Shown in pieces: positions 5,611 to 39,283 of a stretch of DNA of 39,283 nucleotides (the stretch's first letter is position 1; each line of letters opens with the position of its first letter). The stretch covers positions 1 through 39,283 of the forward strand of contig DAHXOU010000048.1 of the NCBI GenBank assembly GCA_027364705.1. The letters are read 5' to 3'. Source of the DNA: Nanobdellota archaeon (GTDB lineage: Archaea; Nanobdellota; Nanobdellia; Pacearchaeales; GW2011-AR1). The position numbers were made by a program, and so were the translations under genes. Under the pieces are notes generated by a model. The model made no database searches, had not been told where the DNA came from, and saw only the letters and a list, made by a program, of their open reading frames with translations.

Positions 5611-5676
5611 TACTCATGGTTGTTTATATAAATTGCGAACCAAATAATTTAAAAAATCCAAACCCTTAACCAAAAT

Positions 5677-6522: not shown

Positions 6523-6524
6523 TT

Positions 6525-14625: not shown

Positions 14626-14657
14626 ATATTTATAATTAATAATTATTTTTGCTAGCA

Positions 14658-21694: not shown

Positions 21695-22558
21695 TTATTT
21701 TTTTACTTCCTTAATTCTTCCTTCTTTCTCTATCATTTTTATGTACTTAATTATTTCATTTTTACTCTTTTTCACACCCATTTTTCCAAGTCTTTTCTGA
21801 ATTTCATTAAGACCTAATGCTTTCTTATGAGTCAAAATTTTTATAATTTTACCCTTTATTTCAGAATTAGAAATTTTTCCAGATTGCTTAACTATTTTCT
21901 TGGTCTTAGCAGGAGAATGTTTTCTTCTTGCTCTTTTTTTCTTAACTACTGCAGTTTTTGCAGGAACAACTTTTTTAGATTTTGTTTTTTTAACAACTTT
22001 AATTGGTTTCTCATGAGAAATTTTCATTTTCTTTCTTCTGACTTTGTTTTTCCTATTCTTTCTTTTTTTTCTCATTTCACTTTTAATTTTTACAATTTTC
22101 TTTTTTGCTCTTCTCTTCCTGTTCTTTCTTAATTTTCTTTTCAGATTTACCGGAATTATTTTAAGAGATAAATCCTGTCCTTTGTCTTTAAAATCCTCAA
22201 CTTTCTTTCCAAGTTTTTTAATTGCAGATTTTATTTCAGGAAGATTTTGTTCAAGATCTTTTTTAATATCTTTAATATCATCAGAAATACCGCTAACCGC
22301 TCCAGAACTTCCTCTGCTTCTTCTTTTTTTAGTAGTTGGATGATATTTATTAGAAATTTTTAATTTTAATATTTTAATTCCTCTTTCTATATTTGGAATT
22401 TCAGAAACATTTTTCAGTTTTGCTCTTATTGCATCAGCATCACTCTTAAATTTTTTTGTATCTAAAGAATTAAGTTCACGTTGCAATTCTTTCAGTCTCT
22501 CGACACCAATCTTAAATGCTTCAAAATCTTCACGGCTTATTTTTCCCTCTTTTGCCAT
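21695..22558 (-). CDS. extremely basic (K/R-rich) protein: N-terminal coiled coil, poly-basic linker, C-terminal winged-helix-like domain
   Basis: 287 aa. The central stretch 'KRKLRKNRKRRAKKKIVKIKSEMRKKRKNRKNKVRRKKMK...KKKRARRKHSPAKTKK' is more than half K/R by eye. The C-terminal 'IIKILTHKKALGLNEIQKRLG...IIKYIKMIEKEGRIKE' looks like a wHTH. SD-like GAGGA lies 6 nt upstream of the ATG. Confidence 0.6.
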   Translation of the reverse strand: MAKEGKISREDFEAFKIGVERLKELQRELNSLDTKKFKSDADAIRAKLKNVSEIPNIERGIKILKLKISNKYHPTTKKRRSRGSSGAVSGISDDIKDIKKDLEQNLPEIKSAIKKLGKKVEDFKDKGQDLSLKIIPVNLKRKLRKNRKRRAKKKIVKIKSEMRKKRKNRKNKVRRKKMKISHEKPIKVVKKTKSKKVVPAKTAVVKKKRARRKHSPAKTKKIVKQSGKISNSEIKGKIIKILTHKKALGLNEIQKRLGKMGVKKSKNEIIKYIKMIEKEGRIKEVKK

Positions 22559-22608: not shown

Positions 22609-23796
22609 TTACTTAAGGAAGCCAATTCGGTATCCTTGTTTTTTAAAATCAGAAAGTTGTTTGTTGATATTGCTTCCTGAAACTTTTTTCATTTCTTTTT
22701 CTGCTTCAACCATTTTGAATCCGTGTTTCTTCCAAGAGTTAAGTTTTCTACTGACTTCATTTTTCTTTCCGTGTTTCTTCAAATTTTGTAATTGTATTCT
22801 CTGAATTTTATGTTTGTGTCTTATTCCTTTAATAATTTTTTTACGAGCAAGTTTCCATTCACGTATTTTCTTTTTATTTCTAAAAGTTCTAACTTTAGCT
22901 CGGCAGGAATTAAGAAGATTAATATTATTTTGAAGTTCATTATTCTGTTGTTTCTGAAGTTTAATCAACAAGTCATCACTTCGTTTAATAAAATAAAATA
23001 ATAAAGCAAGACTCCCGACGACAAAAATCAAAATTATTACAATGAAAAAATTGGAACTCTCATAAGCAAGTTTATCCTTTTTTACTACATTGAATAAATA
23101 ACTGGATACACTTTGAGTTTCAGCATAATCGATAGTCGTTATGAACACGTAATCCCCAAGAGGAACATTAGGAAGATTGATTATTTTATTCATAGATTCT
23201 CCAAGAGTTAAATCTTCTTCATCAGACCAGATTATTTCATTGTTAAAATTTTTAATGGAATATTTGACGTGGACATTTGGAAGAGAAACATAATCTAAAT
23301 CAAAGACTTTTATTTCAACGCCCAATTTTCCATTAGGATACACATTTTCATATTTTGGAATGGTAGACTGGATAATTGCAAAAGGAGGATTTGAACCTTC
23401 AACAGTTAAGATTATTGGAATTTTTTTAACAGCATCAAAAGTTTCAATTATTAACTGCCCCGTATAAACACCAACTTCCCGAATATTATCTTTGAAAAAT
23501 ACTTTTATTTCTTTTGATTCTCCAGGACCGAGACTGAATGTTTTCTCGTCGATAGAAGCAAGATTATCCAGTTTATTGAAATAAACACTAAAATCTCTTT
23601 GAATCATTTCAGTATTTGTTATCCGGATATTATCCGTAGCTTCACCGCCAGTTTCCATATTCAGTTTAATAAGAATTATATTTGTCGCAAGTCCTGCTTC
23701 CCCAGAAAAATAATTCATTTTTACAAAGACAAATCCTGCAATAGCTAAGAAGATTATCAATACAGAAATAAATATCCACTTCTTTTTTACCATCAT
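22609..23796 (-). CDS. bitopic membrane protein, paralog of the giant protein's C-terminal anchor module, with basic cytoplasmic tail
   Basis: 395 aa. The order is N-terminal TM (WIFISVLIIFLAIAGFVFV), two beta-rich domains, a second TM (FFIVIILIFVVGSLALLFYFI) and a roughly 125-aa K/R-rich tail. It aligns by eye with giant-protein residues encoded at 23930-24570. Its ATG overlaps the giant gene's stop (ATGA). Confidence 0.75.
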   Translation of the reverse strand: MMVKKKWIFISVLIIFLAIAGFVFVKMNYFSGEAGLATNIILIKLNMETGGEATDNIRITNTEMIQRDFSVYFNKLDNLASIDEKTFSLGPGESKEIKVFFKDNIREVGVYTGQLIIETFDAVKKIPIILTVEGSNPPFAIIQSTIPKYENVYPNGKLGVEIKVFDLDYVSLPNVHVKYSIKNFNNEIIWSDEEDLTLGESMNKIINLPNVPLGDYVFITTIDYAETQSVSSYLFNVVKKDKLAYESSNFFIVIILIFVVGSLALLFYFIKRSDDLLIKLQKQQNNELQNNINLLNSCRAKVRTFRNKKKIREWKLARKKIIKGIRHKHKIQRIQLQNLKKHGKKNEVSRKLNSWKKHGFKMVEAEKEMKKVSGSNINKQLSDFKKQGYRIGFLK

Positions 23797-26700
23797 CTCT
23801 TTATCTTTTCTTTTATATAGTTCCGTATTCTTTTATACCTTTTGATTACGATAAAGAGTATTGCAGAAATAATAATTAAAGCAGAAATTATTGAAAGGAT
23901 TACTATCTTTCTATAATCTCTTTCTGCTTTGTCCATAATTGCAAATTGCGAACTTGCAACAGCAACTCCTCCAGGATAGATTAATTCAACACCGACGACA
24001 TAATCTCCATTTACAAAATCTTTGGTATTAAATTGTTTTGTAAAACTTTTCTGATTATAAACTGCAATAGTTTCTGATTCAGTAAGATAAACTTTTCCGT
24101 TGAAATCTTTAATGAGATAATTAAGCTGAACGTCCATATTTTCTTTGACTCCCATCTGAAGAAGATTAATTTGCATTTTCAAATCTTCTCCCGAATTTAC
24201 AATTTTGTCAGATTTTGGAATTGACAAAGTGATATCAAATAAACTTTTTTCAGTTCTCACATTAATGATAACAGGAATTTCTCTTCTAGTAGCTCCAGCA
24301 GTTACAATAATCTTTCCCGTATAAATTCCTGTGCTCGTCGGAGAATCAATTCTGAATTTAGCTTTTTTGGTTTCCCCCGGATTTAATCTGATTGTTGAGT
24401 TAAGGATAGAGATTATATTTCCGACACTCTCTACACCGATGCTAAAAGTAGTTTCGGTATTTCTCTCGTTATAAATTTCTATTTCTCCGAACTCAATTCT
24501 GTTTAAGATAATTGTTCTTTGGTATATCTTTGGTGAAAGAGTAAAATTATTCTGTTCAATAAAAGTTGAACCTCCTCCGCCTCCTCCAGAAGGTGTTGTT
24601 ACTGGCGTTACAGGAGTTTCTTCTGAACTATAAATTGAAAATCCAGTTACATCATAAACAAAAGTTCCTCCGGAATAACTAACTTCAGTACAAGTTGTGC
24701 AGACCACACCATTTTTTAATGGACGAGGATTGCTGAAACTTAATCCATAAAAATATAATCTTGCAGTTTTATTTAATTCAGGCAATATTGTAGTGTTAAC
24801 TTCAATTCTATTAAAACTAATATTAACACTCGCATCAATGTCAGTTCCATTTTCTAAATTAATATCCTGAGAAAAGTTTATTTCTCCATAAGTAGGAGCC
24901 TGTAAAACTAAATTAGTAATATTAGTCACATTCAAATCAGATAGATTCGTTGTAGTTCCTGAAAAATAATTTGTAATGACAACACTAAATATTCTTTGTT
25001 CACCTTCAATAACAGTATTATTATTCTGTGTACAATTAACGCTCCAATTATATCTTCCAGGAGGCAGATTATTGAGATAAAAATTCATATTCTCTGCTTT
25101 TGTGATTGTTAGATTAGTCTGGTTAATTGAATTATTAAACATCAAAGAACAGTTTGAAACTATTCCTGTTCCGTCGATAGAATAGACGAAGCTAATATTT
25201 CCGTCGTTATCTCCCGAATTATTTATCGGAGCAATTAAAGTTATTTCTAGAGTTGTATTAATTATTATAGTTCTTGTTTGTGTTGAATTTTTATTATTAA
25301 GAGTATCATTTACAGTTACATTGTAATAATAAGTTCCGTCGGATAATCCTGTCCAGTTTATCGTTCGAGTAGAATCCGTATAAGAAGTTGAGTTAAATTC
25401 CCCTGAAGTATTGTAAAGTAAAAAAGTAATCGTGTCTTCATTTATTTCATCAACACTCACGTTAACATAAATCCAGTCATTTTTGCTTGTTGTTCCGTTT
25501 GCTAATGTTCCAGTTCCGTAAGAAATGACTGAATTAATACTATCCTTAAAGAAAGTTACTGAAGAGGAATTTTTATTTCCCGCAGAGTCATTGATGTAAA
25601 CAATCCATGTATTGCTTCCTTCATTACTTGTTAATCCTGTCCAGTTTGTTCCGCAACTAACAGGTGTAGAATTTGCTCCGCCATTTAATGAATACCAACA
25701 TAAAACAGGATTTATTTCTGTATAAGTATAATTCAAGGTTGAAACATTAGAATTGTAACTTGTATTTTGGGGGTAACTCATGTTAATTTCAGGATAAACA
25801 GAATCAATAAAGAATGAAACATATTCGCTGTTGTTAATATTATTACTGGTATCATTACACCAAAATCTTGCAATATAACTTCCCTGCCCCATTGTTGAAT
25901 TTGTATAATTAGTTCCAGTCAAACTTGCATTAAGATCCATTGTATAATTCGTTGCCCAATTATTTATACTGAATAAACAAGAACTCAAATTCTCATTTGA
26001 AGAAAGGTTAAATGAAATCGTCGTAGTTGCATAAGTCGTATTCACAGGAGATAAAATATTTATCAAAGGATTAACCAAATCAGCAGCTACTGAAACATTA
26101 AGAGTAATAACACTGGAATTCAAATTTCCTAAAGTATCATTTACTGAAACATTGATGTCATATAACCCAAGTGCAAGAGCAGAAGAATTTGTCAAAATTC
26201 CTGTTGAAGAAACAATAGTAAACTTGGTTGTCCAGTTAATTGCAAAACTTCCTAATCCAACACCAGTATCATTCGCATTAATATCATAATTTAATGACTG
26301 TCCTTCGATTAAAGTTTGATTTGCTAGATTTGTAAAGTAAGGAGGTAAAGAATCGATTGTAAAATTAACACCAGTCTGGTTAAAATTATTAACAGTATCA
26401 TTTACCCAGATGGTAACATTATGTCTTCCCTGACTCCAAACTACTGTTGTTATGTTTGTTCCACAATTTGCAAGAGTAATATTCAAACTCATTGAATCAT
26501 TTGAATACCAGCAAGTTGAAAGATGTACGTCGGAAACAGTGTAGTTTATATTTAATCCAGTATTAGATGAATTTGTATTATTCGTCGTAGGATAAGTTAT
26601 GCTAATAGCGGGTTTAGTTGTATCAATGCTAAATGACACTGATGATGAATTTTCATTACCGGCACTATCATTTGCCCAGATAGTTACATTATGATAACCT

Positions 26701-29700
26701 TGAGACCAAACAATAGAGGTTAGATTTGCACAATTAGATAATGTTGTGTTTACTGAATATGAATCATTAGAATACCAACACCCTGTTAGATGAAGGTCGG
26801 AAACAGTGTAGTTTATATCAAGATTAACATTCGAAGAATTAGTGCCATTGACTAAAGAAGTAATATTAATTTCTGGATTAATTGTATCAATTGTAAAATT
26901 AACCGACGCAGAACCGAGATTATTAGTTGTATCATTTGCCCAAATAGTTATATTATGCGGTCCTTCTGCCCAGGTTACAGTAGTTATATTTGCACAGTTT
27001 GCCAAAGGAATGTTCAAACTCATTGAGTCATTTGAATACCAGCAAGCAGAAATTGCAACATTATCTGAAGCAGTGTAGTTTATATTTAATCCAGTATTAG
27101 AAGAATTAAATTTAGGAACAGGGTAAATAATATTCACAATTGGGTTGGTTGAATCAGCAATAGCTGTAACATTAACATACCAAGTTTCAGAACTTCCAGA
27201 ATAATTTGTATTCGACGGATAAATTGCAGTGATGTTGTAAAGTCCTGTTCCGTTGAAAGAAGTTAAATTACTTAAAGGAGAATTTCCTGAATTGATTAAA
27301 GTGTTATTCTTGTAAAGATAAATCGTTCCTGTAACATTGAATAAAGTTGCATTCAACCAGATTGCAGTATTGTTGTAAATTGTGATATTATTTCTTGAAT
27401 TATTTAAGTAAGTGTAAATTTTAGATGAAGTATTTTGTGCAACAGTTAATATTGATGAAGTAGTCATAATAGAATAATTTTCATTCCCTGTTGAATTGTA
27501 AGTGTAATTATAAACTCCGACTCCGAGAGTTATTACATGAGGATTAGCAACTATCCCCGAAGTGTTCAAAGATAAATTACAAATTAATTCTGAAGGACAT
27601 CCAGAACCTGTTGCTGTTGTTTCTGTAGGATAAGTTACTATTGTCGATGGAGTAATTGCTAAAGATAAAACATAAGTTGTATTCTGTGTTATGTTAAAAA
27701 TAGTTGTGTTTGAACTTTCCGTATAATTTTGCGAAGATGCTAAACTACAATTAAATGTCCAATTTCCAACACCCAAAACAATTTGTGAACCCGATGTTCC
27801 ATTTGTTAACGTTGTCGTTCCTTGTCCAGATATTACAGAACAAGTCGGCGTAATTGCATTCGGATAACTCTGAGGATTTGTTTTATCAAAAGTCAATGAA
27901 GTCTGTGAAGCAATCTTGGAAACATTAACTTGATAAATTGTTGAATTCAAATTATTGGAAGAATCATTTATTGTGATGTTGATTAAGTAAAGTGCAACTC
28001 CGAGAATAGTATTATTTTTTAATCCACCAGAAGAATTTATTGTAAATCTTGTGTCGTTGACAGAGTAAAAACCAAAAGCAGTTTCATCTGAAGCGTTGAA
28101 GTCAACATCTAATGCTTGTAAATAATTCAATGAAGCATTTGCAGGAATTGCTGTGAAGTAAGGAGGAGTTGTGTCTGCTGTTGATGTAACATTTACATAC
28201 CAAGTTTCAGAACTCCCAGAATAATTTGTATTCGAAGGATAAATTGCAGTGATATTGTAAAGTCCTGTTCCGTTGAAAGAAGTTAAGTTACTAAGAGGAG
28301 AATTTCCTGAATTAATTAAAGTGTTATTCTTGTAAAGATAAATTGTTCCTGTAGAATTGAATAAAGTTGCGTTTAACCAGATTGCAGTATTATTGTAAAT
28401 AGTAATATTGTTTCTCGAGTTATTAAGATAAGTGTAAATTTTAGACGAAGTGTTTTGAGAAATATTTATTGTCATTGTTACTGAAGCAATATTAGAATAG
28501 TTTTGATTTCCTGTAACATTGAAAATGTAAGTGTAATTTGTAACACCTAGAGTTTGATTTAATCCGTTTTCTGTTGTTACATCGACGTCATTTCTGTAAA
28601 GTTTAACTGTTCCGCCTGTTGTAGATGCTGAAGCATTAACTTGTTGTGGATAAGTTATTGAAATATTATTCAGTTGAGAATTAATTGAGTAAGTTAATGT
28701 TGGTGCAATCTTTGAAACATTTACTTGATAAATTGTTGAATTCAAATTATTAGAAGAATCATTTATTGTGATGTTGATTAAATAAAGTGCAACTCCAAGA
28801 ATAGTATTATTTTTTAATCCACCAGAAGAATTTATTGTAAATCTTGTGTCGTTGACTGCATAAGTTCCAAAGGCAGTTTCATCTGCTGCAGAGAATATTA
28901 CATTTAATGCTTGAAGATAATTTAATGAAGCATTTGCGGGAATTGTTGTGAAATAAGGAGGAGTTGTATCTGCGGTTGATGTAACAGATATTTGTAACAC
29001 ACTTGAATTCAAATTTCCCAAGGTATCATTTACTGAAACGTTTATGTAATAAGTTCCTGCGGATAAATGAGTTGAATTTGATAGAACTCCTGTCGATGCA
29101 ACAATTGAAAAGTTTGTTGTCCAGTTAATTGCAAAACTTCCTAATCCCACACCATCATCTACAGCGTTTATGTCATAGTTGAGTGTTTGATTATCTGCTA
29201 TTGTTTGTGTTTGTAAATTTGTAAAGTAAGGAGGTAAAGAATCAATTCTGAAACTCACACTTGATTTATTTACATTATTTACTGTATCATTTGCCCAAAT
29301 AGTTACATTGTGGTAACCGTCACTCCAAACAATAGTAGTTAAATTTACACAATTAGATAAGGTGGTATTTACAGAATATGAATCATTAGAGTACCAACAA
29401 GAACTTATTGAAGAAGTTATATCACTCAAAGTATAATTCACGTCTAGATTAACATTCGATGAATTAGAATTATTCAACGGAGTTGTTATTGAAATTGCAG
29501 GTTGAGTATTATCAATTGTAAAATTTCTATCTGTTATTCTTGATTTAACATCTGCAGAATTGTCTCCAGAATATGCAGTAATATTTGTTCTGTATTTTCC
29601 ATCAGGAACTAAAGAAGTATTGAAATTAATCCACAAGTCAAGATCATTTGGGCATAAGAAACTTCCATTAATTGTATAGTTCCAAGTTCCATCTGTGTTT

Positions 29701-32700
29701 CTCAAAGTTAAATTATGTGTTACATTACCGACGCTATCAGGGTCTTTTGCACAACCAATTTTTATCTGCATTATTCCTTTGTGTGTCCCATTTAAATTAA
29801 TATCATAATTCAATGCAGAATTATTATATTCTAAAACAATAGGATAAGATATTGGATGATTTGTTGGAGTTATCTCGTCTCGAACTAAACTAAAATTATA
29901 ACCTGCATTTCCATACATATCTGTTGCATAGTAACCAAAATCAAATTCATCATTTGCACTTCTTGTAGAAGTAGTAAAGACATCTGGTGTGAAATTTGCT
30001 TGAACCCAAGTTGTTCCTCCATTAGTTGTAATCCAAGCAACATTTGTTTGATTGAAAGGAACATCTGTATTAGTTGTTCCATTTGCATATCTTAACTCAT
30101 AACTTTTTCCTGCAGCTGTTTCTGGTGATTCATATTCGATATAGAATTCTGCAGTTGCTTTTATTCCACCAAAATGTCCGTTGATAATTCCATAAGTTCC
30201 TTTGGAGTAAGAAGAATTTCTATCAGTAAATATTCTGTTATTTATTTCTGTTGAAGTCAATGAATTAATCAATGCACAATTTGGAGAATTAATTACCTGA
30301 ACAGAACCAGCAGGATTGTAAGAACTATTACAATAAAATGCCCTAAATGTCTTTGATGGAGCACCAGTAACTGCAAGATTTCTAAATGAATTCATAGTAT
30401 AATTTTGTGTATTTCTATATGCTTCAGCATCAAATCTTTTCATCAACAAATAATTATTATTCCTTATTGTATAATTTTTCTTGCTCTCTTTTACCATAGA
30501 TTCATAACTTAAGTAAACACTTTGTCTAAATGCGGCAACATCTACTGCAGGATGAGTGTAATTTATTATAACACTTGTGTTTGCAGTATTCTCCGCAGTG
30601 ATTGTAAAATGTCCGTATTCTCCATCTTCAATTGCGTAAGAAAATGTATCATTCAAAATATTATAGCAAGGATTAATTCCTTCACAAGTTTTGTTTAAAG
30701 TGGTAATTGAGTCATACCAGTATCCTTCATTTCTTCCAAGAGCTCTCCAAATTTTATAAGGAGGAGTTAAATTTCCGACAACACCCAATGAATTATTTGG
30801 ATACCTATTTGACCAATAATTAGGAATTCCTGCAGCCAAAACAAATGCATCAACAGTTCTTGTGATAAAGAAAGCATAATGGTCCCCAAGTTTAGTTAGA
30901 TTAACGCCATTTATATCTGTACAATTCATTATTACAGTTAATACTCCGGTAGAATTATCAACAAGATTTGATGGTGTTCTGTTTAATAAAGTACAAACTG
31001 GCCCAATTGAATCTATATTAAATGAAACAAATGAGGAGTTTAAATTATTTGAAGTATCATTTGTCCAGATTGTAACATTATGCTTTCCTTGAGACCAAAC
31101 TATTGTAGTTAAGTTAGCACAATTAGATAATGTTGTATTTACAGAATAAGAATCATTAGAATACCAGCAAGAGGAAATTGCAATATTATCTGAAACTGTG
31201 TAGTTAACATTTAAGTTAATATTGGAGGAATTTGTTCCATTAACAGGATAAGTTATATTGATGTTTGGTTTAATTGTATCTGGCGGTGTAACATTTACAT
31301 ACCAAGTTTCAGAACTTCCAGAGTAATTTGTATTCGAAGGATAAATCGCAGTGATGTTGTAAAGTCCTGTTCCGTTGAAAGAAGTTAAGTTACTAAGAGG
31401 AGAATTTCCTGAATTGATTAAAGTTCCATTTTTGTAAAGATAAATTGTTCCTGTAGCATTGAATAAAGTTGCGTTTAACCAAATTGCAGTATTATTGTAA
31501 ATTGTTATGTTATTCCTTGAATTATTTAAGTAAGTGTAAATTTTAGATGAAGTATTTTGAGAAACATTTATTGTCATTGTTACTAAAGCAATATTAGAAT
31601 AGTTTTGATTTCCTGTAACATTGAAAATGTAAGTGTAATTTGCAGCACCGAGAGTTTGATTTAATCCGTTTTCTGTTGTTACATCGACGTCATTTCTGTA
31701 AAGTTTAACTGTTCCTCCTGTTGTTGATGCTGATGCGTTAACTTGCTGTGGATAAGTTATTGAAATATTATTCAGTTGAGAATTTATGGAGTAAGTTAGC
31801 GTTGGTGCAATCTTTGAAACATTAACTTGATAAATTGTTGAATTCAAATTATTTGAAGAATCATTTATTGTGATGTTGATTAAGTAAACTGCAACTCCCA
31901 AGATTGTATTATTTTTTAATCCGCCAGAAGAATTTATTGTAAATCTTGTGTCGTTGACTGCGTAAAAACCAAAAGCAGTTTCATCTGAAGCGTTGAAGTC
32001 AACATCTAATGCTTGTAAATAATTCAATGAAGCATTTGCAGGAATTGCTGTGAAGTAAGGAGGAGTTGTGTCTGAAGTAATACCAACTGTTACAATTCTA
32101 GTTTCTGTCTTGTTTAAATTTCCTGAAGAATCAATTGCATAAGCAGTAAAATTATAATTAGCATTTGTTAAATTTGTAAAGTTATTACGATATTGATATG
32201 CTGAAGTATTATACAAAGAGGAAATTTCCGAAGAAGATAATGCTCTAGAGAAAATTAAAACATCATCTAAGCTTCCATTAAAATAAGCACAAGGAGCAGG
32301 ACCACGATTATCTACACCAAGGGTTAAACTTGCCGAGGGGAATAAAGAACCTACACCATTTGCACTTGCTAAAAGATTTCCATCCCTGTAACTTATTAAA
32401 TTAGTAATGTTCCAAATAAGAGTATACATGTGCCAAGAGTTATCTGTTAATCTCCCCGCATCAACAGGTAGAAAAGCGCTACCATTTGCAGTATACCAAT
32501 TTCCATCACAATAAATACCATAACCTCCGCTTGTACCGCTAAAATCTGCTATTGGAACATCATTAGTAGTGTTAGATTTTATCCATAAACTTACTGTAAG
32601 TCCATTAGTAAAACCAGATAAAGATGAATCAGGAACACTAATAGAATTATTAACTCCGTTAAACTGCATTCCTTTTCCTCTTATCCCCGTAACGATATTG

Positions 32701-35700
32701 CTTGTGCTTGTTCCCTGAAAAGTTCCAAAATTATTATAACTTGAATTGTCATAAACACCAGTTGTATTATAAAAATCAAAACTCCACCACCCCATTAAAG
32801 TTCTGTTGAAATCAAGAAATGTTGAATGATCGCTTGCATCACTTGTTGAAACATTTACATAAATTGAATTTCCAGATTGAGTGCTCCCATTCGACGGAGT
32901 TGGATTTGTGAAATTAATATTTGGACTTACATCTGTTACATTTACAATATAACTTCTTTCATCACTTTTATTATAATTATGCAATGTTCCATTACTATAA
33001 GCCCACCATCGATAAGCATAAGTCCCCCCAACAGTAAAAGTATGTGAAGCGTTGTAGACATTTGCAGTTAAATTTTTCGCAGTAATATTTGTTCCATCAA
33101 TTTCCAACCATACAGTTCCATTTGTATTTACAACAGTTACATTGAATAAACCAATTCCAGAATCTAATATAGAAGCATTATTGTCATAATAATTTGAGAA
33201 AAGAGGATAAATAGAATCAATATTAAAAGTTACTGAAGATGAATTTATATTTCCAGCAGAATCATTCGCCCAAATTGTTACATTGTGATTTCCTTGTGCC
33301 CAAATTATTGTTGTAATATTCGTCTGACAATTTGCTAAAGTTGTATTTGCGGAATAAGAATCATTAGAATACCAGCAAGATTGAAGATTTAAGTCAGATG
33401 CAGTATAATTAATATTTAATCCTGCATTTGAAGAATTAGTTCCATTTGTTGGAGAAGTGATGTTAATATTTGGAGCAGTTGTATCTGCAACATAATTAAT
33501 TGCTCCTGTTTCTGTATCTGTTCTTGTATAACTGCTGTAAGTTGCATTTACAAATAAATCCTGCAATCCAGTTAATCCAGTAGGAACAGTTACATTAGCT
33601 TCCCATCCTTTTCCAATTACATATCCATATTGATTAGTAGTTTCTGCAACGACACTAAAATTAATATCATCATCATCCCCAAAAGTACCATTATAACATT
33701 GATTAGATCCGTTTAAAGTTCCAAAAGTTACTTGTCCTCTTATGTATTGTGTTGCATTAGAAGAAGTTATATTCACGTTAATGGAATAGTTCCCAACGGT
33801 ACCCGGATAATCACAGGTTGCATCATAAAATTCTTCATTCCATACACTTCCATTATAATACCAAATTTTTACTTCATCACCAACACCATCACATCTAACG
33901 GCCATAGTAACATTTATTTTATCTGTAGGATGAAAAGATGTTCCATTTAACCATAAATCTACAACAGCATCTGTTCCATCACATGAACTTGCACCAGTAC
34001 AACTATCTGCCAAAATATTATTTGTACAATAAAGAGGACTTCCTTGATTACAACTAACTCCGCAAGATTTTTCAGTATAATTTAAATTTTTTGCTGTCGT
34101 AACCAAATTAGCAAATATTCCTCCAATGGTCAAATTATTCAATGTAACTCCAGAAGTTATATTTGCACTATTTTGTAAGAAATTAAAATAAACAGAAATA
34201 TTCTCATTTGAAGTAACACTTAATGGACTTGATGTAGTGGGTGAAGTTATTTGAACTGAGTAAACTGTCGGAGCAGAAATATTCAAACTACGATTAGTTC
34301 CCCAAGCATTTTGACTTGCATTATCATAAACTAAACAGTTCCATTTAGTTGAATTATAAAAACTGAAATTATAAGTAAAGGTAGTAGAGTTAGTTGTTCC
34401 TGTCCAAGATGTAAAATTAGTTGTTATTATTCCACCAGAGGAATTCCAAACATAAAGAGTCACATTCTTAAGATTATTATCGTCGGTGGCATTACATTCA
34501 AAGGTTACAACTCCTAAATCAGTTACATTATTATTTGCTGGTCTGCTTAAAATTGAAGCGGGAGGATTATCCACTGCTCCGCCACATATTCCATCCCAAG
34601 CAGTTCCATCCGAATGATAAGAAGCCCAATCAGCTCCTGTTGCATTTACATCATAAGCGTGAATAAAATTTTGACTACAGAAACCAATATTTGTTGCAGC
34701 AGAGTATGACGCAACCGCATTGTATTGATAGCCAGTAATAGCATTATTAGTGCTGTTTATTGGTCCTGCTAATAATGTCCCCCCAGAAGTGTATACTGCA
34801 AAAGTATCGGCAGGTAGATTAAACCAACTAATTGCAAAAGCAGTTGAATTCAAAGCTGCAACAGATACAGTACTATAACCCCCATATAAATTGTCAATAG
34901 CATTAATATCCCCCGTTAGATTATTTCCTGCAGAATCATATATTTTAAATGCTACATCATCTTGTGGAAAATTTTGCCAACCAAGTACGAAAGCAGTTGA
35001 ATTAAAAGCAGAAGTTGTGACTGTATAAGAACCTGTTCCTGGTTCTACAGCATTGATAATATTAGTTAAATTATTTCCTGCAAAATCATATATTGCAAGA
35101 TCAATAGAAGAACCATTATACCAGCTAAATACAAAGGAAGTAGAATTAAAAGCTGAAATAGAAACAGATTGAGAAGCAACGACATTAGTATCTGCATCAA
35201 TTGGTGCAACTAATTGGTTTCCTGCAGAATCATATATCGCGAAAGTTGAATCTCCATCTGCTTTATCCCACCAACCGATTGCAAAAGCAGTTGAATTAAA
35301 AGCTGAAACAGCAACAACCGAATTGTAACTAATTGCAGTATCTGCAGAAATTGGTGCAACTAATTGGTTTCCTGCAGAATCATATATCGCAAACATAGCA
35401 TCTTCAGCATCATTATCTGCATAACCAACAACAAAGGAAGTAGAATTAAAAGCAGAGACAGATAATTGATTTAGAGCACAGTCATAAACACTATTATCGA
35501 CAGTAATATCTCCAGTAATATTAGTTCCATTAGTATCATAAATCTTGAAAATAATATCATTAACTGATTTGTCACACCATGCTAAAGCAAATTTATTAGT
35601 AGTTAAGGGAGCTAAAGCAACTGGTCGGGCATCAGTAATAGAAAAAGTGGGGTCAATAATATAATCAAACTCAGTATTATTTGAAACTTTCAAATCAAAA

Positions 35701-36752
35701 GTATCTTGAGAATGAGTTAAATTAGTTAAATAAATCTTAGACCAATTTTCAGAATTAATAACAGGGAAAGTCGCAATTAAATTAGTTCCATCTTTTTCAT
35801 AAACTTCAATAGTAGAATTGTTTCCCCTTGCATAAATTGTTATATCATTTTTATTAGTCAAATTTTTTTCAAAACTAACTCTAACATATTCATTTTGTTT
35901 TATCGTCTCACTCCAATTACTATCATTATATTTAACAGAATCATAAATATCCGAGATAAATTCTCTGCTCGAATTTAAATGAACGGCAGAAGAAATTTCA
36001 ATATAAAATTCAAAGATAATTGTATTGTATCCAACTTTGATTTTCTCGCCTATAAATTTGGAAAAATTTTTCTTGTCATAATCTGACAAATCAATATTAA
36101 AAACTCCTTCTTTAGATAAATCAACCTTATCATTTATTTTTGTTTTAGAACTTGTATTAACAGGATAGTCCTTAATATTATTGGCTGAATTTTTAAAAGA
36201 GTCTATCTTAGTTTGATTTTTTTCATCTTTAATATATTTTTCAATTACTTTGTCTAAACATTTATCATCTTTCTTTTTCTCGGTTTCAGGACAATCATTT
36301 ATATCTTTCAGCAAGGTTTCGTTTAATTTATATCTTACTTCAAATCTTGTTTCATTTATTTTGTTTATAGTATAAATAATGTAATTCTCAAATCCTTCTT
36401 GTTCTATTATTTTTAAATTCAAAATCCCCTGTTTATCTTTTATTTTATCTTCAAGAGATTTTGCATCAGTTAAACCAAAACTTGTTTTTCCTTCGAGAAT
36501 CTCATTTCCAAATTCATCAATTGCAAATCCTGAAATAGTCGGCTTGAAATAAAAAAATCCCGCAAGCAAAGATAAAACCAAAAACAAAATAACAAAGACA
36601 GATATTATCTTCGGAGAAATAATTTTTTTTCCTTTTACACTACTCTCTTTTCCAATATATTCTGTTACAACTTTTCCTTTTTCTTTATGATTAGAATAAG
36701 AATACGGACCGTAAACTTTTCCACCTTTTTTTATGTACCGATTGTAAACCAT
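23793..36752 (-). CDS. giant (4,319 aa) modular surface glycoprotein-like protein with N- and C-terminal TM anchors
   Basis: A single uninterrupted 12,960-nt ORF. Module order:
- a roughly 45-aa cytoplasmic N-terminus (YIKKGGKVYGPYSYSN...GKVVTEYIGK) and a TM (36550-36610)
- a K-rich unique domain
- 6-7 propeller-like repeats of about 48 aa
- a Cys-rich domain
- at least 7 'CWYSNDS' beta-sandwich modules
- a LamG/ConA-like domain
- three long near-identical repeats
- a unique region of about 490 aa
- a poly-Gly linker, an anchor module, a TM and the basic tail KRYKRIRNYIKEKIKR
N-x-S/T sequons occur throughout. Confidence 0.9.
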   Translation of the reverse strand: MVYNRYIKKGGKVYGPYSYSNHKEKGKVVTEYIGKESSVKGKKIISPKIISVFVILFLVLSLLAGFFYFKPTISGFAIDEFGNEILEGKTSFGLTDAKSLEDKIKDKQGILNLKIIEQEGFENYIIYTINKINETRFEVRYKLNETLLKDINDCPETEKKKDDKCLDKVIEKYIKDEKNQTKIDSFKNSANNIKDYPVNTSSKTKINDKVDLSKEGVFNIDLSDYDKKNFSKFIGEKIKVGYNTIIFEFYIEISSAVHLNSSREFISDIYDSVKYNDSNWSETIKQNEYVRVSFEKNLTNKNDITIYARGNNSTIEVYEKDGTNLIATFPVINSENWSKIYLTNLTHSQDTFDLKVSNNTEFDYIIDPTFSITDARPVALAPLTTNKFALAWCDKSVNDIIFKIYDTNGTNITGDITVDNSVYDCALNQLSVSAFNSTSFVVGYADNDAEDAMFAIYDSAGNQLVAPISADTAISYNSVVAVSAFNSTAFAIGWWDKADGDSTFAIYDSAGNQLVAPIDADTNVVASQSVSISAFNSTSFVFSWYNGSSIDLAIYDFAGNNLTNIINAVEPGTGSYTVTTSAFNSTAFVLGWQNFPQDDVAFKIYDSAGNNLTGDINAIDNLYGGYSTVSVAALNSTAFAISWFNLPADTFAVYTSGGTLLAGPINSTNNAITGYQYNAVASYSAATNIGFCSQNFIHAYDVNATGADWASYHSDGTAWDGICGGAVDNPPASILSRPANNNVTDLGVVTFECNATDDNNLKNVTLYVWNSSGGIITTNFTSWTGTTNSTTFTYNFSFYNSTKWNCLVYDNASQNAWGTNRSLNISAPTVYSVQITSPTTSSPLSVTSNENISVYFNFLQNSANITSGVTLNNLTIGGIFANLVTTAKNLNYTEKSCGVSCNQGSPLYCTNNILADSCTGASSCDGTDAVVDLWLNGTSFHPTDKINVTMAVRCDGVGDEVKIWYYNGSVWNEEFYDATCDYPGTVGNYSINVNITSSNATQYIRGQVTFGTLNGSNQCYNGTFGDDDDINFSVVAETTNQYGYVIGKGWEANVTVPTGLTGLQDLFVNATYSSYTRTDTETGAINYVADTTAPNINITSPTNGTNSSNAGLNINYTASDLNLQSCWYSNDSYSANTTLANCQTNITTIIWAQGNHNVTIWANDSAGNINSSSVTFNIDSIYPLFSNYYDNNASILDSGIGLFNVTVVNTNGTVWLEIDGTNITAKNLTANVYNASHTFTVGGTYAYRWWAYSNGTLHNYNKSDERSYIVNVTDVSPNINFTNPTPSNGSTQSGNSIYVNVSTSDASDHSTFLDFNRTLMGWWSFDFYNTTGVYDNSSYNNFGTFQGTSTSNIVTGIRGKGMQFNGVNNSISVPDSSLSGFTNGLTVSLWIKSNTTNDVPIADFSGTSGGYGIYCDGNWYTANGSAFLPVDAGRLTDNSWHMYTLIWNITNLISYRDGNLLASANGVGSLFPSASLTLGVDNRGPAPCAYFNGSLDDVLIFSRALSSSEISSLYNTSAYQYRNNFTNLTNANYNFTAYAIDSSGNLNKTETRIVTVGITSDTTPPYFTAIPANASLNYLQALDVDFNASDETAFGFYAVNDTRFTINSSGGLKNNTILGVAVYLINITINDSSNNLNSTIYQVNVSKIAPTLTYSINSQLNNISITYPQQVNASASTTGGTVKLYRNDVDVTTENGLNQTLGAANYTYIFNVTGNQNYSNIALVTMTINVSQNTSSKIYTYLNNSRNNITIYNNTAIWLNATLFNATGTIYLYKNGTLINSGNSPLSNLTSFNGTGLYNITAIYPSNTNYSGSSETWYVNVTPPDTIKPNINITYPVNGTNSSNINLNVNYTVSDNIAISSCWYSNDSYSVNTTLSNCANLTTIVWSQGKHNVTIWTNDTSNNLNSSFVSFNIDSIGPVCTLLNRTPSNLVDNSTGVLTVIMNCTDINGVNLTKLGDHYAFFITRTVDAFVLAAGIPNYWSNRYPNNSLGVVGNLTPPYKIWRALGRNEGYWYDSITTLNKTCEGINPCYNILNDTFSYAIEDGEYGHFTITAENTANTSVIINYTHPAVDVAAFRQSVYLSYESMVKESKKNYTIRNNNYLLMKRFDAEAYRNTQNYTMNSFRNLAVTGAPSKTFRAFYCNSSYNPAGSVQVINSPNCALINSLTSTEINNRIFTDRNSSYSKGTYGIINGHFGGIKATAEFYIEYESPETAAGKSYELRYANGTTNTDVPFNQTNVAWITTNGGTTWVQANFTPDVFTTSTRSANDEFDFGYYATDMYGNAGYNFSLVRDEITPTNHPISYPIVLEYNNSALNYDINLNGTHKGIMQIKIGCAKDPDSVGNVTHNLTLRNTDGTWNYTINGSFLCPNDLDLWINFNTSLVPDGKYRTNITAYSGDNSADVKSRITDRNFTIDNTQPAISITTPLNNSNSSNVNLDVNYTLSDITSSISSCWYSNDSYSVNTTLSNCVNLTTIVWSDGYHNVTIWANDTVNNVNKSSVSFRIDSLPPYFTNLQTQTIADNQTLNYDINAVDDGVGLGSFAINWTTNFSIVASTGVLSNSTHLSAGTYYINVSVNDTLGNLNSSVLQISVTSTADTTPPYFTTIPANASLNYLQALNVIFSAADETAFGTYAVNDTRFTINSSGGLKNNTILGVALYLINITINDSSNNLNSTIYQVNVSKIAPTLTYSINSQLNNISITYPQQVNASASTTGGTVKLYRNDVDVTTENGLNQTLGVTNYTYIFNVTGNQNYSNIASVTMTINISQNTSSKIYTYLNNSRNNITIYNNTAIWLNATLFNSTGTIYLYKNNTLINSGNSPLSNLTSFNGTGLYNITAIYPSNTNYSGSSETWYVNVTSTADTTPPYFTAIPANASLNYLQALDVDFNASDETAFGFYSVNDTRFTINSSGGLKNNTILGVALYLINITINDSSNNLNSTIYQVNVSKIASQTSLTFDKTNPQSYPNAITPTCSVISGQGTTTLTNGTSGSQIVLGVGNWTFNCSLASSQNYTESSNTTIFNITQNTTYVLSLAITPSTIVTYPTETTATGSGCPSELICNLSLNTSGIVANPHVITLGVGVYNYTYNSTGNENYSIMTTSSILTVAQNTSSKIYTYLNNSRNNITIYNNTAIWLNATLFNVTGTIYLYKNNTLINSGNSPLSNLTSFNGTGLYNITAIYPSNTNYSGSSETWYVNVTAIADSTNPIVNIIYPVPKFNSSNTGLNINYTASDNVAISACWYSNDSMSLNIPLANCANITTVTWAEGPHNITIWANDTTNNLGSASVNFTIDTINPEINITSLVNGTNSSNVNLDINYTVSDLHLTGCWYSNDSYSVNTTLSNCANLTSIVWSQGYHNVTIWANDSAGNENSSSVSFSIDTTKPAISITYPTTNNTNSSNTGLNINYTVSDVHLSTCWYSNDSMSLNITLANCGTNITTVVWSQGRHNVTIWVNDTVNNFNQTGVNFTIDSLPPYFTNLANQTLIEGQSLNYDINANDTGVGLGSFAINWTTKFTIVSSTGILTNSSALALGLYDINVSVNDTLGNLNSSVITLNVSVAADLVNPLINILSPVNTTYATTTISFNLSSNENLSSCLFSINNWATNYTMDLNASLTGTNYTNSTMGQGSYIARFWCNDTSNNINNSEYVSFFIDSVYPEINMSYPQNTSYNSNVSTLNYTYTEINPVLCWYSLNGGANSTPVSCGTNWTGLTSNEGSNTWIVYINDSAGNKNSSSVTFFKDSINSVISYGTGTLANGTTSKNDWIYVNVSVDEINEDTITFLLYNTSGEFNSTSYTDSTRTINWTGLSDGTYYYNVTVNDTLNNKNSTQTRTIIINTTLEITLIAPINNSGDNDGNISFVYSIDGTGIVSNCSLMFNNSINQTNLTITKAENMNFYLNNLPPGRYNWSVNCTQNNNTVIEGEQRIFSVVITNYFSGTTTNLSDLNVTNITNLVLQAPTYGEINFSQDINLENGTDIDASVNISFNRIEVNTTILPELNKTARLYFYGLSFSNPRPLKNGVVCTTCTEVSYSGGTFVYDVTGFSIYSSEETPVTPVTTPSGGGGGGSTFIEQNNFTLSPKIYQRTIILNRIEFGEIEIYNERNTETTFSIGVESVGNIISILNSTIRLNPGETKKAKFRIDSPTSTGIYTGKIIVTAGATRREIPVIINVRTEKSLFDITLSIPKSDKIVNSGEDLKMQINLLQMGVKENMDVQLNYLIKDFNGKVYLTESETIAVYNQKSFTKQFNTKDFVNGDYVVGVELIYPGGVAVASSQFAIMDKAERDYRKIVILSIISALIIISAILFIVIKRYKRIRNYIKEKIKR
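26350..27165 (-). repeat. three tandem ~85-90-aa 'CWYSNDS' beta-sandwich modules (further copies at ~33200-33480, ~31000-31285, ~29250-29520, ~25540-25800)
   Basis: Each module reads 'NI(T/S)..P.NGTNSSN..LN(I/V)NYT(A/V)SD....(S/A/G/T)CWYSNDS(Y/M)S.N(T/I).L(A/S)NC.N(I/L)T(T/S)..W.(Q/E)G.HN(V/I)TIWAND(S/T)..N.....V.F.ID(S/T)'. I located the copies by the recurring antisense DNA string tcat(t/ta)gaatacca(g/a)ca. Confidence 0.8.
27166..28177 (-). repeat. long intragenic repeat copy R3 (mosaic: R1-like first ~270 nt, divergent ~465-nt centre, R1/R2-like last ~275 nt)
   Basis: 28081-28177 is essentially identical to 31978-32074 of R1, closer than R2 is to either. The centre (about 27440-27905) encodes different sequence (SQTSLTFDK...TVAQNTS). 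27166-27440 again matches the R1/R2 C-terminal part. Confidence 0.8.
28186..28972 (-). repeat. long intragenic repeat copy R2 (787 nt)
   Basis: It has the same module as R1, and both ends match at offset 3,102. It is directly followed in protein order by R3, so R2 and R3 are tandem. Confidence 0.85.
31288..32074 (-). repeat. long intragenic repeat copy R1 (787 nt, ~262 aa: DTTPPYFT...SKIAPT...SKIYTYLNNS...WYVNVT)
   Basis: It aligns without indels to 28186-28972 at a constant offset of 3,102 nt. I estimate about 90% nt identity by eye. Confidence 0.85.
32200..32800 (-). other. LamG / concanavalin-A-like lectin (Laminin_G_3-like) domain of the giant protein
   Basis: 'LMGWWSFDF...YDNSSYNNFGTFQGT...GIRGKGMQFNGVNNSISVPDS...GLTVSLWIK...WHMYTLIW...LISYRDGNL...YFNGSLDDVLIFSRALSSSEISSLY' is the classic Laminin_G_3 pattern. 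Confidence 0.75.
34600..35640 (-). repeat. 6-7 tandem ~48-aa repeats (possible beta-propeller) inside the giant gene
   Basis: The recurring unit is 'S-x-SAFNST(S/A)F-x-x-x-W...(F/A)-x-IYDS(A)GN-x-L-x-x-x-I'. At the DNA level, the string ggtgcaactaattggtttcctgcagaatcatatatcgc occurs twice (about 35205-35242 and 35352-35390). Confidence 0.6.
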
Positions 36753-36820: not shown

Positions 36821-39283
36821 TTAATGAAATTCATACGCACCAATGTCCCAAGCAGAACCTTGTGGACGAGAAATTCCATCTGCATCAGAATCAACAACAC
36901 CCGCAAGATTTGATCCTGCATTAATTGCTGGACTACTTGAAATTAAATGATAATTTGCAGTTCCAAAAATTGAAGTAGGATTAACAAAAATACTTCCTAA
37001 ATTAAGCACCTGACTTTCTCCAGTTTTAAGAGTGTAGATTCCCAATCCAGAAGTATAAATATTATTTGAAGTAACATATTTTGAATCTGATTCTTGATGA
37101 GGAGTTGACATAATATTATTTCTTAAAATAGCAGAAGTCGCTACTTTTGAAAGATGAGGTAATGTCAAAAGACTAGAACCCTGAGCATAAGTACTTAACA
37201 AAACATTGTTATAAGCTTCAAAAGTATAAATTGTAGTCCAGAAAGATAAAGGAGCTGAATCCTCTAAACCGTATAATACATTATTTTTTATTTCTACATT
37301 ATTGACGTAATTAAAAGCCATTGGTCTTACATTAAATATTATATTTCTGTTAGCATAAACATTATTGATATAACTGGTAGCATCTCCATAAAATGCAACG
37401 CCATTGGTATGAACTCCTTCAAATCCATAAATCTTATTATCATCAAAAGTAATGTCTCCACCCCAAGTATTAATTAAAATACCTGAATTTGACCTAGTCA
37501 TAGTATTATTTCTTATTATTCCGGATCCAGAGGATAAATAAATAACTCGAGTATCCTTTACACTACTGATATAATTATTTTCGACTAATGAGTCACCATC
37601 CAGAAAAATCATACCAGAAAGTCCGCCACCTATACTTTGAATAAGATTATTTTTTATTTCAATTCCTGTTCCCATACGAAATCCGTTCCCCCAATAATTC
37701 TGAATTTTAAATCCATCAATAACAACATCGTGACTCGTTGGAGAATAAAATGCATCTTCTAAAGAAGCAATACTAATTGGAAAAGTAGAAATATCTTTCT
37801 TTGGCCAGATATAAACACGTCTGGTTGATTCATCATAATAGAATTCCCCTGCTCTCTCAAAGATAGAACTTAGATTGCTATTCATTATTGAATAATTGGT
37901 AGTCGGATAAAGAATACTGCAAACACTTGAAGGGAAAGTTATAGTATTTGGAGCAGTGTATCCAGAAATTTTTATGTGATTAACAACATTATTATCACAC
38001 CATAATGCAACATAACTTCCGATTAAATTAGCTCCGCCAAGAGCAGATAAAGCAGGATCAGTTAATTGAATAGTTGTAGTATTACTTACAACATTACTCG
38101 TCGATAAATAATGAGTTATATCTCCGTAATAAAAAGGGTCAATCATATTTGGATGTTGAGACATAAATAAAAAATCACCGTCTTGGTAAAGACTAAGATC
38201 CCACGCAGAACTAATTCCATAAGAAGATAAATCCATGTACCAAAGATTATTGTAATTCGGATTATTCAAACAACCAGATTGACTTGTACATCTAACAAAT
38301 CCAGAAAGTTGTTGAGAGCCATCAAGAATTGCTCCTTGTCTGACCAAAGATTGGATTTTTATTTTATTACTTGCTGTTCCGGAATTAATACCATTAATCG
38401 CCTCTCGGTATATTCCTGGTTGAACAAGAATAGTATCTCCTGCAGCAGCAAGACCAACTGCATTTCTTATACTACACCAAGGACGTGTTAAATTATTTTG
38501 TGCTTTGGTATAACTATCACTGCAGGTTCCAGATAAATTATTTTTATCGACGTAATAAGAATTTGTTATTTGCATAACACAAGTTCTTGCAACACAGTTA
38601 TAACCCGCTTGACATCCTCCTCCGTAATTTCCACAATTAACAGTTCCACAAGTTCCATTTGATGCAGTTCCACAATTGAAAGAACCACAAGGATTTGCCG
38701 TCGGTGTACAACTTGCAGAGAAGCATTGGCCTGTTGCATTACAAGTTTGTCCTCCAGAACAAGTTCCACAACTCATTGTTCCACAAGTTCCATTATTCCA
38801 AGTTCCACAATTCTTTCCTAATGCTATACAAGTTGTTGGTGTACAACTTCCAACAGGAGGAATTTCAATTCTTTTCCCAGTTCTTACATTAAAGCTGTCT
38901 GCAATATTTCCAAGATTCTCTTCACCATTGTTTGAACTAAAAATCGGAACAATTGAAATTGTAACTAAAGTTGAAACATTCATCGACAAATGAAAAACAA
39001 ATCTTCTCTCACCAAGTTGAACCAAATTAACATCTTCAGTAACAATTTCAGTATTTGAATTGTTATAGAAAACAAATTTCATTCCAACCAAATTTCCTTC
39101 GCCGACATTTCTCTTTACAGACATGGTAACATTGTTGGAGGAGTTATCTATATTCACTCCTTTAATTTCTGTGCTCAAAGTTAATTTTTCTAATCCAATA
39201 TTCTGCGAACTGTTCTGAATTAAATTATTTATAACAACCCAGAAGATTCCGATAGCAACTAAAGAAATCAAAATTATAATCAG
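36821..39283 (-). CDS. 5'-truncated secreted protein: pilin-like hydrophobic N-terminus, beta domain, two Cys-knot repeats and a right-handed parallel beta-helix (DUF1565/pectate-lyase-like)
   Basis: The ORF is open to the window edge: the codons upstream of the track's TTG read L-I-I-I-L. Domains in order:
- 'LISLVAIGIFWVVINNLIQNS' hydrophobic helix
- Cys repeats 'CGTWNNGTCGTMSCGTCSGGQTCNATGQC' and 'CGSFNCGTASNGTCGTVNCGNYGGGCQAGYNC'
- beta-helix N-cap 'YYVDKNN...RPWCSIRNAVGLAAAGDTILVQPGIYRE'
- repeated 'I(R/K/E)NN' rungs
- C-terminal 'DSDADGISRPQGSAWDIGAYEF'. Confidence 0.75.
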   Translation of the reverse strand: MIIILISLVAIGIFWVVINNLIQNSSQNIGLEKLTLSTEIKGVNIDNSSNNVTMSVKRNVGEGNLVGMKFVFYNNSNTEIVTEDVNLVQLGERRFVFHLSMNVSTLVTISIVPIFSSNNGEENLGNIADSFNVRTGKRIEIPPVGSCTPTTCIALGKNCGTWNNGTCGTMSCGTCSGGQTCNATGQCFSASCTPTANPCGSFNCGTASNGTCGTVNCGNYGGGCQAGYNCVARTCVMQITNSYYVDKNNLSGTCSDSYTKAQNNLTRPWCSIRNAVGLAAAGDTILVQPGIYREAINGINSGTASNKIKIQSLVRQGAILDGSQQLSGFVRCTSQSGCLNNPNYNNLWYMDLSSYGISSAWDLSLYQDGDFLFMSQHPNMIDPFYYGDITHYLSTSNVVSNTTTIQLTDPALSALGGANLIGSYVALWCDNNVVNHIKISGYTAPNTITFPSSVCSILYPTTNYSIMNSNLSSIFERAGEFYYDESTRRVYIWPKKDISTFPISIASLEDAFYSPTSHDVVIDGFKIQNYWGNGFRMGTGIEIKNNLIQSIGGGLSGMIFLDGDSLVENNYISSVKDTRVIYLSSGSGIIRNNTMTRSNSGILINTWGGDITFDDNKIYGFEGVHTNGVAFYGDATSYINNVYANRNIIFNVRPMAFNYVNNVEIKNNVLYGLEDSAPLSFWTTIYTFEAYNNVLLSTYAQGSSLLTLPHLSKVATSAILRNNIMSTPHQESDSKYVTSNNIYTSGLGIYTLKTGESQVLNLGSIFVNPTSIFGTANYHLISSSPAINAGSNLAGVVDSDADGISRPQGSAWDIGAYEFH
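38570..38860 (-). repeat. two tandem Cys/Gly/Thr-rich knot-like repeats in the beta-helix protein
   Basis: 'SCTPTTCIALGKNCGTWNNGTCGTMSCGTCSGGQTCNATGQC' and 'SCTPTANPCGSFNCGTASNGTCGTVNCGNYGGGCQAGYNCVARTC' share the spacing CTPT...CG(T/S)(W/F)N.GT(A)..GTCGT(M/V).CG. Confidence 0.7.

Follow-up and report, generated by a model that had tools for sequence, protein, structure and literature searches.

Among the means by which DPANN archaea may attach to their hosts, giant surface proteins are the leading candidates, and little is known of how they evolve. Gene conversion among paralogous repeats is known, for example, in repeat-bearing streptococcal surface proteins. The subject of the present work is a giant gene of a Nanobdellota archaeon (positions 1 to 39,283 of contig DAHXOU010000048.1, assembly GCA_027364705.1; this whole stretch of 39,283 nucleotides (nt) is referred to hereafter as the window), whose predicted surface protein holds three copies, R1, R2 and R3, of a cassette of stalk domains. 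The closest described counterparts are bacterial: in the Periscope Proteins (SasG, Aap, Rib and Sgo_0707), near-identical tandem domains permit recombination and length variation (PMC8201768), and these proteins are described in bacteria only, with archaea unmentioned in that account. For archaea, comparison can be made with the SPEARE proteins of Nanohaloarchaeota, which combine serine protease, adhesion and intracellular restriction-endonuclease domains (PMC6642349), and with the variable surface proteins of Nanoarchaeota (PMC6142677).

We consider it probable that R1, R2 and R3 are copies of one A-B-C stalk cassette in a giant DPANN surface protein, and that they owe their present form to duplication of whole domain cassettes together with patchy gene conversion. 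The locus would offer a clean example of a stalk architecture built by duplicating and exchanging whole immunoglobulin-like (Ig-like) domains at their boundaries, with gene conversion then keeping distant copies alike.

Cassette geometry and mosaic divergence

All three cassettes lie in one open reading frame (ORF) on the minus strand, taken from the ORF list and its translation; no second ORF of at least 80 amino acids (aa) overlaps it between 27000 and 32200. The features on which the comparison depends are as follows.

23793-36752, minus strand: giant ORF of the predicted surface protein, 4,319 aa, holding R1, R2 and R3
31287-32075, minus strand: R1 cassette (A1 31809-32072, B1 31560-31808, C1 31287-31559), directly downstream, in the protein, of a laminin-G (LamG)-type domain
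28185-28973, minus strand: R2 cassette (A2 28707-28970, B2 28458-28706, C2 28185-28457)
27165-28178, minus strand: R3 cassette (A3 27912-28175, B' 27687-27911, B'' 27438-27686, C3 27165-27437)
27438-27910, minus strand: middle of R3, in which B' and B'', both B-type Ig-like domains, stand instead of a single B

R1 and R2 align without a gap at a constant offset of 3,102 nt, with 69 of 789 positions differing (91.3% DNA identity), so that the figure of about 90% estimated by eye in the initial annotation is borne out. The repeats are real, but to call them near-identical, as was done there, is too strong: a difference falls roughly once in 11 nt, and the longest stretches that copies share exactly are of 113, 65 and 59 nt. 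R3 follows R2 in tandem via a three-codon linker. Its 5' part (27912-28177, 267 nt) aligns with R2 and R1 at offsets of 795 and 3,897, respectively, and its 3' part (27165-27437, 273 nt) matches them at offsets of 1,020 (R2) and 4,122 (R1) with 91-93% identity, in agreement with the earlier description of a tandem third copy whose last ~275 nt return to the R1/R2 sequence. The non-matching stretch between these parts (27438-27910, 473 nt) stands where R1 and R2 have 249 nt, and R3 is longer than either by 225 nt (75 aa).

Each cassette of ~262 aa comprises three beta-sandwich domains in the order A-B-C, which in R3 becomes A-B'-B''-C. The edges of the repeats fall exactly at domain boundaries, as seen from the residues at the points where similarity begins or ends (VSKIA/PTLTY against VSKIA/SQTSL, and INVS/QNTSS against LTVA/QNTSS). 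An AlphaFold2 model of R3 displays four consecutive beta-sandwich domains (mean predicted local distance difference test score, pLDDT, of 88.5), for which the best Foldseek matches are stalk fragments of the GhpA grappling hook, protocadherins/cadherins and the extender repeats of RTX adhesins; a sequence search against solved structures gave no match. Neighbouring domains, whether in one cassette or at the join of two, belong to different types (A, B and C) that share ~30% identity or less.

Relationships among the three copies change along their length, most sharply over a tract at the start of the A domain (referred to hereafter as a1).

31962-32074, minus strand: tract a1 on the R1 side, 113/113 identical to the R3 side
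28065-28177, minus strand: tract a1 on the R3 side, 113/113 identical to the R1 side
28860-28972, minus strand: R2 counterpart of a1, ~20% divergent from R1 and R3

The initial annotation had noted that roughly the first 100 nt of R3 are essentially identical to R1, closer than R2 is to either; exact alignment upholds this, R1 and R3 sharing all 113 positions as against ~80% for R2. Outside a1, R1 and R3 are ~93% identical, at which level about 8 differences would be expected over 113 nt where 0 are seen. Following the coding strand, the linker is of R2=R3 type and gives way to 22 consecutive informative sites at which R1=R3 (32070-31962 in R1), followed by two sites private to R3 (28062 and 28064); over R1 coordinates 31923-31889, five of the seven variable sites are again R2=R3, the remaining two differing in all three copies. 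In the C domain, the initial 55 nt are mostly R1=R3 and the remainder is interleaved. The run of 22 R1=R3 sites, set among 68 variable sites, was matched in none of 200,000 permutations (p < 5e-6). In the rest of the alignment no one of the three site patterns predominates (15, 14 and 13 sites), and like patterns still cluster (runs test, p = 0.04).

Substitution rates divide along the same lines. Between copies outside a1, synonymous divergence (dS) is 0.19-0.44 and nonsynonymous divergence (dN) ~0.02, with dN/dS of ~0.05-0.1; within a1, R1 and R3 differ by a dS of 0 and a dN of ~0.01, whereas R2 differs from either by a dS of 0.63 and a dN of 0.13-0.15, this patch of the R2 A domain being the only part with raised dN. 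The cassettes thus contain segments of very different age, which argues for gene conversion or concerted evolution rather than a single duplication followed by divergence. That the three copies do not conform to one simple tree supports gene conversion, as judged from the alignment, and the suggestion of the initial annotation that conversion underlies the patchwork gains support from the 113-nt tract, the 22-site run and the flanking R2=R3 clusters. The copies are not fresh, a dS of 0.19-0.44 being unlike the near-100% DNA identity of arrays that vary rapidly in length. As to the divergent a1 version of R2, it may be either older sequence that escaped homogenisation or a patch imported from elsewhere; no donor for it occurs elsewhere in the window. 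Mutagenesis by a diversity-generating retroelement was considered and rejected, given that the 22 a1 sites that distinguish R2 involve all four bases and are not adenine-specific; no reverse transcriptase was found among the window ORFs of at least 150 aa scanned with Pfam.

The middle of R3 was initially described as unrelated sequence that had replaced the original. It is unmatched at the DNA level and no donor for it occurs elsewhere in the 39-kb window, but its two domains are of B type and share the same fold, in what looks to be an old arrangement. B' and B'' are 26-31% identical to the B and C domains, the tail of B'' reaches 61-70% aa identity to the tail of B, and over 66 nt (27466-27531) the DNA is 73-74% identical to that encoding the end of B. 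Homologues elsewhere present related orders: B'-B''-C in P0001 (62-66% aa identity to the R3 middle), A-B''-C in P0002 and B'-B-C in P0004. The metagenome contig L011 (29.5% G+C) encodes a protein that is colinear with C2-A3-B'-B''-C3, at 63% identity over 439 aa (80% aa identity for B'), and shares both the C-to-A and the A-to-B' junction with the window, though the two are not syntenic. At the DNA level, L011 is 75-79% identical to the window for each A and C copy and 75.6% for B'. The A and C copies of the window are 88-96% identical to one another, closer than they are to L011, and so the C-A-B'-B'' order is older than the present similarity of A and C. Most likely, to go by these identities, the flanks of R3 were homogenised with R1 and R2, or R1 and R2 were derived from the flanks of R3, after the split from L011; it is less likely that the R3 middle came from foreign DNA recently inserted into a copy of R2.

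Wider searches recovered more distant relatives. Those in reference genomes are all from Woesearchaeota/Pacearchaeota (DPANN) metagenome-assembled genomes (MAGs), at no more than 51% aa identity to the cassette; R3 as query returned no homologue above ~60% identity, and a 26-mer common to all three copies was absent from the metagenome and genome collections searched, in which no close orthologue was found. We observe separately that a related giant gene from Woesearchaeota, L005, contains a 253-nt direct repeat (9940-10192 and 11446-11698) of 100% identity with its copies 1,506 nt apart, from which it follows that internal high-identity repeats recur in such giant genes.

The order of events, as we infer it, would run as follows. 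The copies may have arisen by segmental duplication along domain boundaries, one becoming dispersed 3.1 kb away across a unique region and one lying in tandem, with the third cassette having an older layout, A-B'-B''-C. Later intragenic gene conversion would have partly homogenised the copies, leaving material of several ages: the identical 113-nt R1/R3 tract, most of the cassette at 5-9% divergence, the R2 tract at 20%, and B' and B'' as anciently diverged domains. Purifying selection (dN/dS of ~0.05-0.1) would meanwhile hold the protein copies at 95-97% identity.

Assembly, population variation and competing explanations

Repeats of this kind are prone to misassembly in short-read data. Our checks of the assembly and of variants rest on Logan k=31 contigs from four public runs (X1, X2 and X3 among them), not on reads; such contigs break inside repeats. 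Exact contigs in both X1 and X2 nevertheless span the informative joints: 28148-28284 (the R2-to-R3 tandem junction, which joins the R3-specific linker to the initial pair of R1-type sites), 27408-27948 (the R3 middle with its two edges), 27072-27255 (the R3 exit, with its interleaved site pattern), 28830-29145 (the R2 entry, which ties the R2-type a1 to unique upstream sequence) and both flanks of R1 (29118-31377 and 32045-35228). In the low-coverage run X3, contigs of 504 and 595 nt reproduce R1 without a mismatch. In X1, a shared 143-nt unitig carrying the R1-type a1 has a depth of 62.8, as compared with 31.4 for the R2-type a1 and a base of ~29; the corresponding depths in X2 are 26.2, 8.4 and ~8-10. 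Such depths agree with an a1 that is present twice in R1-type and once in R2-type form, the R1-type unitig standing at ~2.2x base in X1 and ~3x base in X2. The assembly hazard raised in the initial annotation is hence real at k=31 and moderate overall, with every unique junction that was checked reproduced exactly in two samples and a longest identical run of 113 nt.

The accompanying proposal, that the locus yields length or sequence variants within a population, finds no support, as no alternative junction of meaningful depth occurs in the contigs of the four runs. Loose ends of contigs either continue into paralogous sequence, as expected, or consist of sequence that the window does not contain. 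Those at 24254, 26494, 31268, 31766, 33085, 33115 and 33147 were rejected as variants of the locus because none occurs in the window, and they would belong to paralogous genes or to other organisms. A joint between 26514 and 31244 was likewise set aside (depth of 2.3, one side of 21 nt, out of register with the repeats of P-type Ig-like domains) and is treated as a chance or paralogous match. A 2.6-kb gap in X3 was not taken as a deletion of R2 and R3, since a similar gap of ~2 kb lies in single-copy DNA at 4668-6668.

Elsewhere in the gene, an X3 contig (depth of 3.1) skips exactly 150 nt at 35198-35349, with 42 nt common at the joint. The skipped segment is one 50-aa unit of an N-terminal array of ~50-aa repeats (aa ~380-700). 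This could be a true length variant, or a k=31 shortcut through the 42-nt exact repeat at low coverage.

Three other accounts of the locus have to be weighed against duplication with patchy conversion. An actively length- or sequence-variable array, of a Periscope-like or cassette-switching kind in an archaeon, would place 2, 3 or 4 cassettes or different patchworks in the population. The substrate for it is present in the tandem and dispersed repeats, in exact runs of up to 113 nt and in one demonstrably recent conversion tract; the excess of the R1-type a1 unitig in X2 over that in X1, a depth of ~0.7x base over the unique part of R3 in X1, and internal repeats in related giant genes (such as the exact pair in L005) also lie in its favour. 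We nonetheless regard such an array as unlikely, given the lack of alternative junctions in the four runs, an inter-copy dS that speaks against rapid turnover, and the presence of three copies only, two of them in tandem; the absence of R2 and R3 from X3 is paralleled by the gap in single-copy DNA. Somewhat more doubtful again is a working variation system, in which recombination among R1, R2 and R3 would alter the length of the stalk or the exposed A-domain patch and so tune host attachment; if true, it would be an archaeal counterpart of the Periscope Proteins or of cassette-based antigenic variation.

An artefact of assembly, in which mis-threaded short reads would have produced the apparent number of copies or the R1-like patch of R3, could draw on the breakage of k=31 contigs at repeats, and on the R3-private differences at 28062 and 28064 and the C3 interior, which are not represented in the Logan contigs. 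Against it stand the exact two-sample matches to the tandem junction, the edges of the R3 middle, the R3 exit, the R2 entry and the R1 flanks, the exact reproduction of R1 in X3, depths consistent with a patch of R1 type present twice and one of R2 type present once, and the recurrence of the same C-to-A and A-to-B' junctions in L011; together these make an artefact very improbable. We would give hardly any weight to a history free of recombination, in which the copies diverged independently after one or two duplications and a1 marks a local burst in R2 under relaxed or positive selection. The raised dN of R2 in this patch makes selection on it conceivable, but dS is raised there too (0.63 as against 0.2-0.4), the eight or so differences expected between R1 and R3 are missing, and R2=R3 clusters on both sides of a1 contradict any single tree.

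Duplication of cassettes followed by patchy gene conversion has points of its own to answer. The k-mer depth in X1 is ~19-21 over 26538-27948, compared with ~28-33 over the rest of the gene (~0.7x); no variant contig accounts for this drop, and X2 does not have it. Neither X1 nor X2 yields an exact contig for the interior of C3 (27256-27407), where the mosaic is represented by the original assembly alone, and k=31 contigs do not phase sites that are separated by more than 31 identical nt. L011 may be a paralogue and not an orthologue, as it is non-syntenic and encodes a protein that stops shortly beyond the cassette. Taken as an outgroup for a1, L011 sides with R1/R3 at 8 sites and with R2 at 10 and differs from both at 6, which points to neither a1 version as ancestral and gives no direction or order for the events. 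With regard to method, the junctions indicate that short-read MAGs can get such genes right, in that all those checked held, although contigs alone cannot show copy-number variation.

The giant protein and its neighbourhood

The full protein has hydrophobic segments at aa 44-70 (N-terminal) and aa 4281-4305 (C-terminal), the latter followed by a tail of ~14 residues, and contains 308 N-x-S/T sequons, a 2.4-fold excess over the 127 +/- 9 found in shuffled sequences. A Pfam scan placed Big_13 above cut-off and identified a Laminin_G_3 domain (PF13385, E = 8.6e-21). Further domains around the cassettes are listed below.

32220-32657, minus strand: Laminin_G_3 (concanavalin-like lectin) domain, aa ~1366-1511, PF13385
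29508-31004, minus strand: unique region of ~500 aa (aa 1917-2415) between R1 and R2, bracketed by P-type Ig-like domains
26091-27164, minus strand: P-type Ig-like domains, three in a row (26355-27164), and then a single A*-type domain (26091-26354), all following R3; repeat families D3-D5, from self-comparison

Self-comparison orders the first half of these elements as LamG, R1 (A1-B1-C1), P, the unique ~500 aa, P and A*, and the rest as R2 (A2-B2-C2), R3 (A3-B'-B''-C3), P-P-P, A* and further Ig-like domains; the C-terminal end consists of a Pro/Thr/Gly linker, a membrane-proximal domain and a transmembrane segment. The P and A* domains after R3 are more diverged paralogues (34-79% aa identity) of the domains that flank R1 and R2. 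Taken as a whole, these features suggest a heavily N-glycosylated, membrane-anchored surface protein of an adhesin-like or stalk type, whose surface location, glycosylation and function as an adhesin or spacer are all predicted from sequence. The Laminin_G_3 domain just before R1 is a candidate ligand-binding module. Within aa 1917-2415, self-comparison revealed no internal repeat and Pfam gave no family match (DIPSY sub-threshold at most); this region is a candidate functional head domain.

The gene sits in an archaeal context, as indicated by the eIF2-gamma and aIF5B-like factors encoded in the window, which also includes gyrase A and B; the G+C content is ~32%, and DNA of the window is present in mine-drainage metagenome runs. 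Together with the affiliation of the cassette relatives, this points to a mine-drainage member of the DPANN archaea, of Woesearchaeota/Pacearchaeota type. Directly downstream, an ORF at 22609-23796 (minus strand) overlaps the stop codon of the giant gene (ATGA) and encodes a 395-aa membrane protein, which shares 28% identity with the membrane-proximal part of the giant protein (aa 4064-4280) over 225 aa (E = 4e-17) and may be a co-transcribed paralogue of its anchor module. The upstream neighbour (36821-39271, minus strand, 816 aa) has Cys-rich repeats of G-T-C-G type (family D13) and then a right-handed beta-helix region (Pfam Beta_helix, E = 1.1e-5, slightly under cut-off), and looks secreted or surface-located. 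Exact look-ups of the giant protein and of both neighbouring proteins gave no match. Between the surface-protein genes and gyrB lies an ORF at 21695-22558 (minus strand) whose 287-aa product is extremely rich in Lys and Arg and matches no Pfam family. A further ORF at 14649-15521 (plus strand) encodes a PD-(D/E)XK/Cas4-like nuclease (PDDEXK_1, E = 3e-34); Pfam scans of the large ORFs of the window gave no other Cas-family protein, CRISPR arrays not having been looked for.

Comparison with known systems

The protein resembles the Periscope Proteins in its predicted surface location, in a stalk of repeated folded domains and in a repeat DNA identity that provides a substrate for recombination. 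Its end-anchored surface features (hydrophobic segments, sequon excess, Ig-like and LamG domains) are in keeping with that class, the surface location being predicted from them. It does not have a tandem array of very similar adjacent domains: whereas long arrays of highly similar units typify the Periscope Proteins, the present locus has three cassettes of 91% DNA identity, two of them in tandem, and neighbouring domains are of different types. Repeat number in the Periscope Proteins varies between strains; for the present locus, the k=31 contigs of four runs hold no alternative junction. Were length or patch variation to prove true, the concept of the Periscope Protein would no longer be confined to bacteria and would take in archaea.

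A likeness to bacterial fibrillar and giant adhesins (RTX, GhpA) is suggested by the structural model, in which the predicted string of four beta-sandwich domains best matches their stalk fragments. The overall layout is also shared, with a lectin-like module (Laminin_G_3), an Ig-like stalk and a cell anchor, such that both the Ig-like beta-sandwich stalk of Big-type fibrillar adhesins and a putative binding domain are found. The present protein differs in being archaeal, in having transmembrane segments and not a type I secretion retention module or sortase anchor, and in its extreme density of sequons; no RTX or calcium-binding motifs were found in it.

With the SPEARE proteins and the variable surface proteins of Nanoarchaeota (PMC6642349; PMC6142677) it has in common great length, a mostly extracytoplasmic disposition, laminin-G and adhesion-type domains and a C-terminal anchor. 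The setting is alike too: small-genome archaea, whose cultured or well-studied members are attached to host cells. Identity as a SPEARE protein was rejected, as no serine-protease or restriction-endonuclease domain was found and the cytoplasmic tail is of ~14 residues.

In DNA pattern, the locus corresponds to concerted evolution among paralogous repeats. Conversion at this locus differs from such systems in being patchy and mostly old, with silent donor cassettes or dedicated switching machinery not evident. It agrees with them in that similarity varies sharply along the copies, a long identical tract standing in a diverged background: the R1-R3 tract lies significantly beyond that background, relationships are discordant along the alignment, and the paralogues within the window are closer to one another than to L011 (a possible orthologue). 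A mosaic of duplication and conversion of this sort is an ordinary evolutionary route for giant adhesin-like genes.

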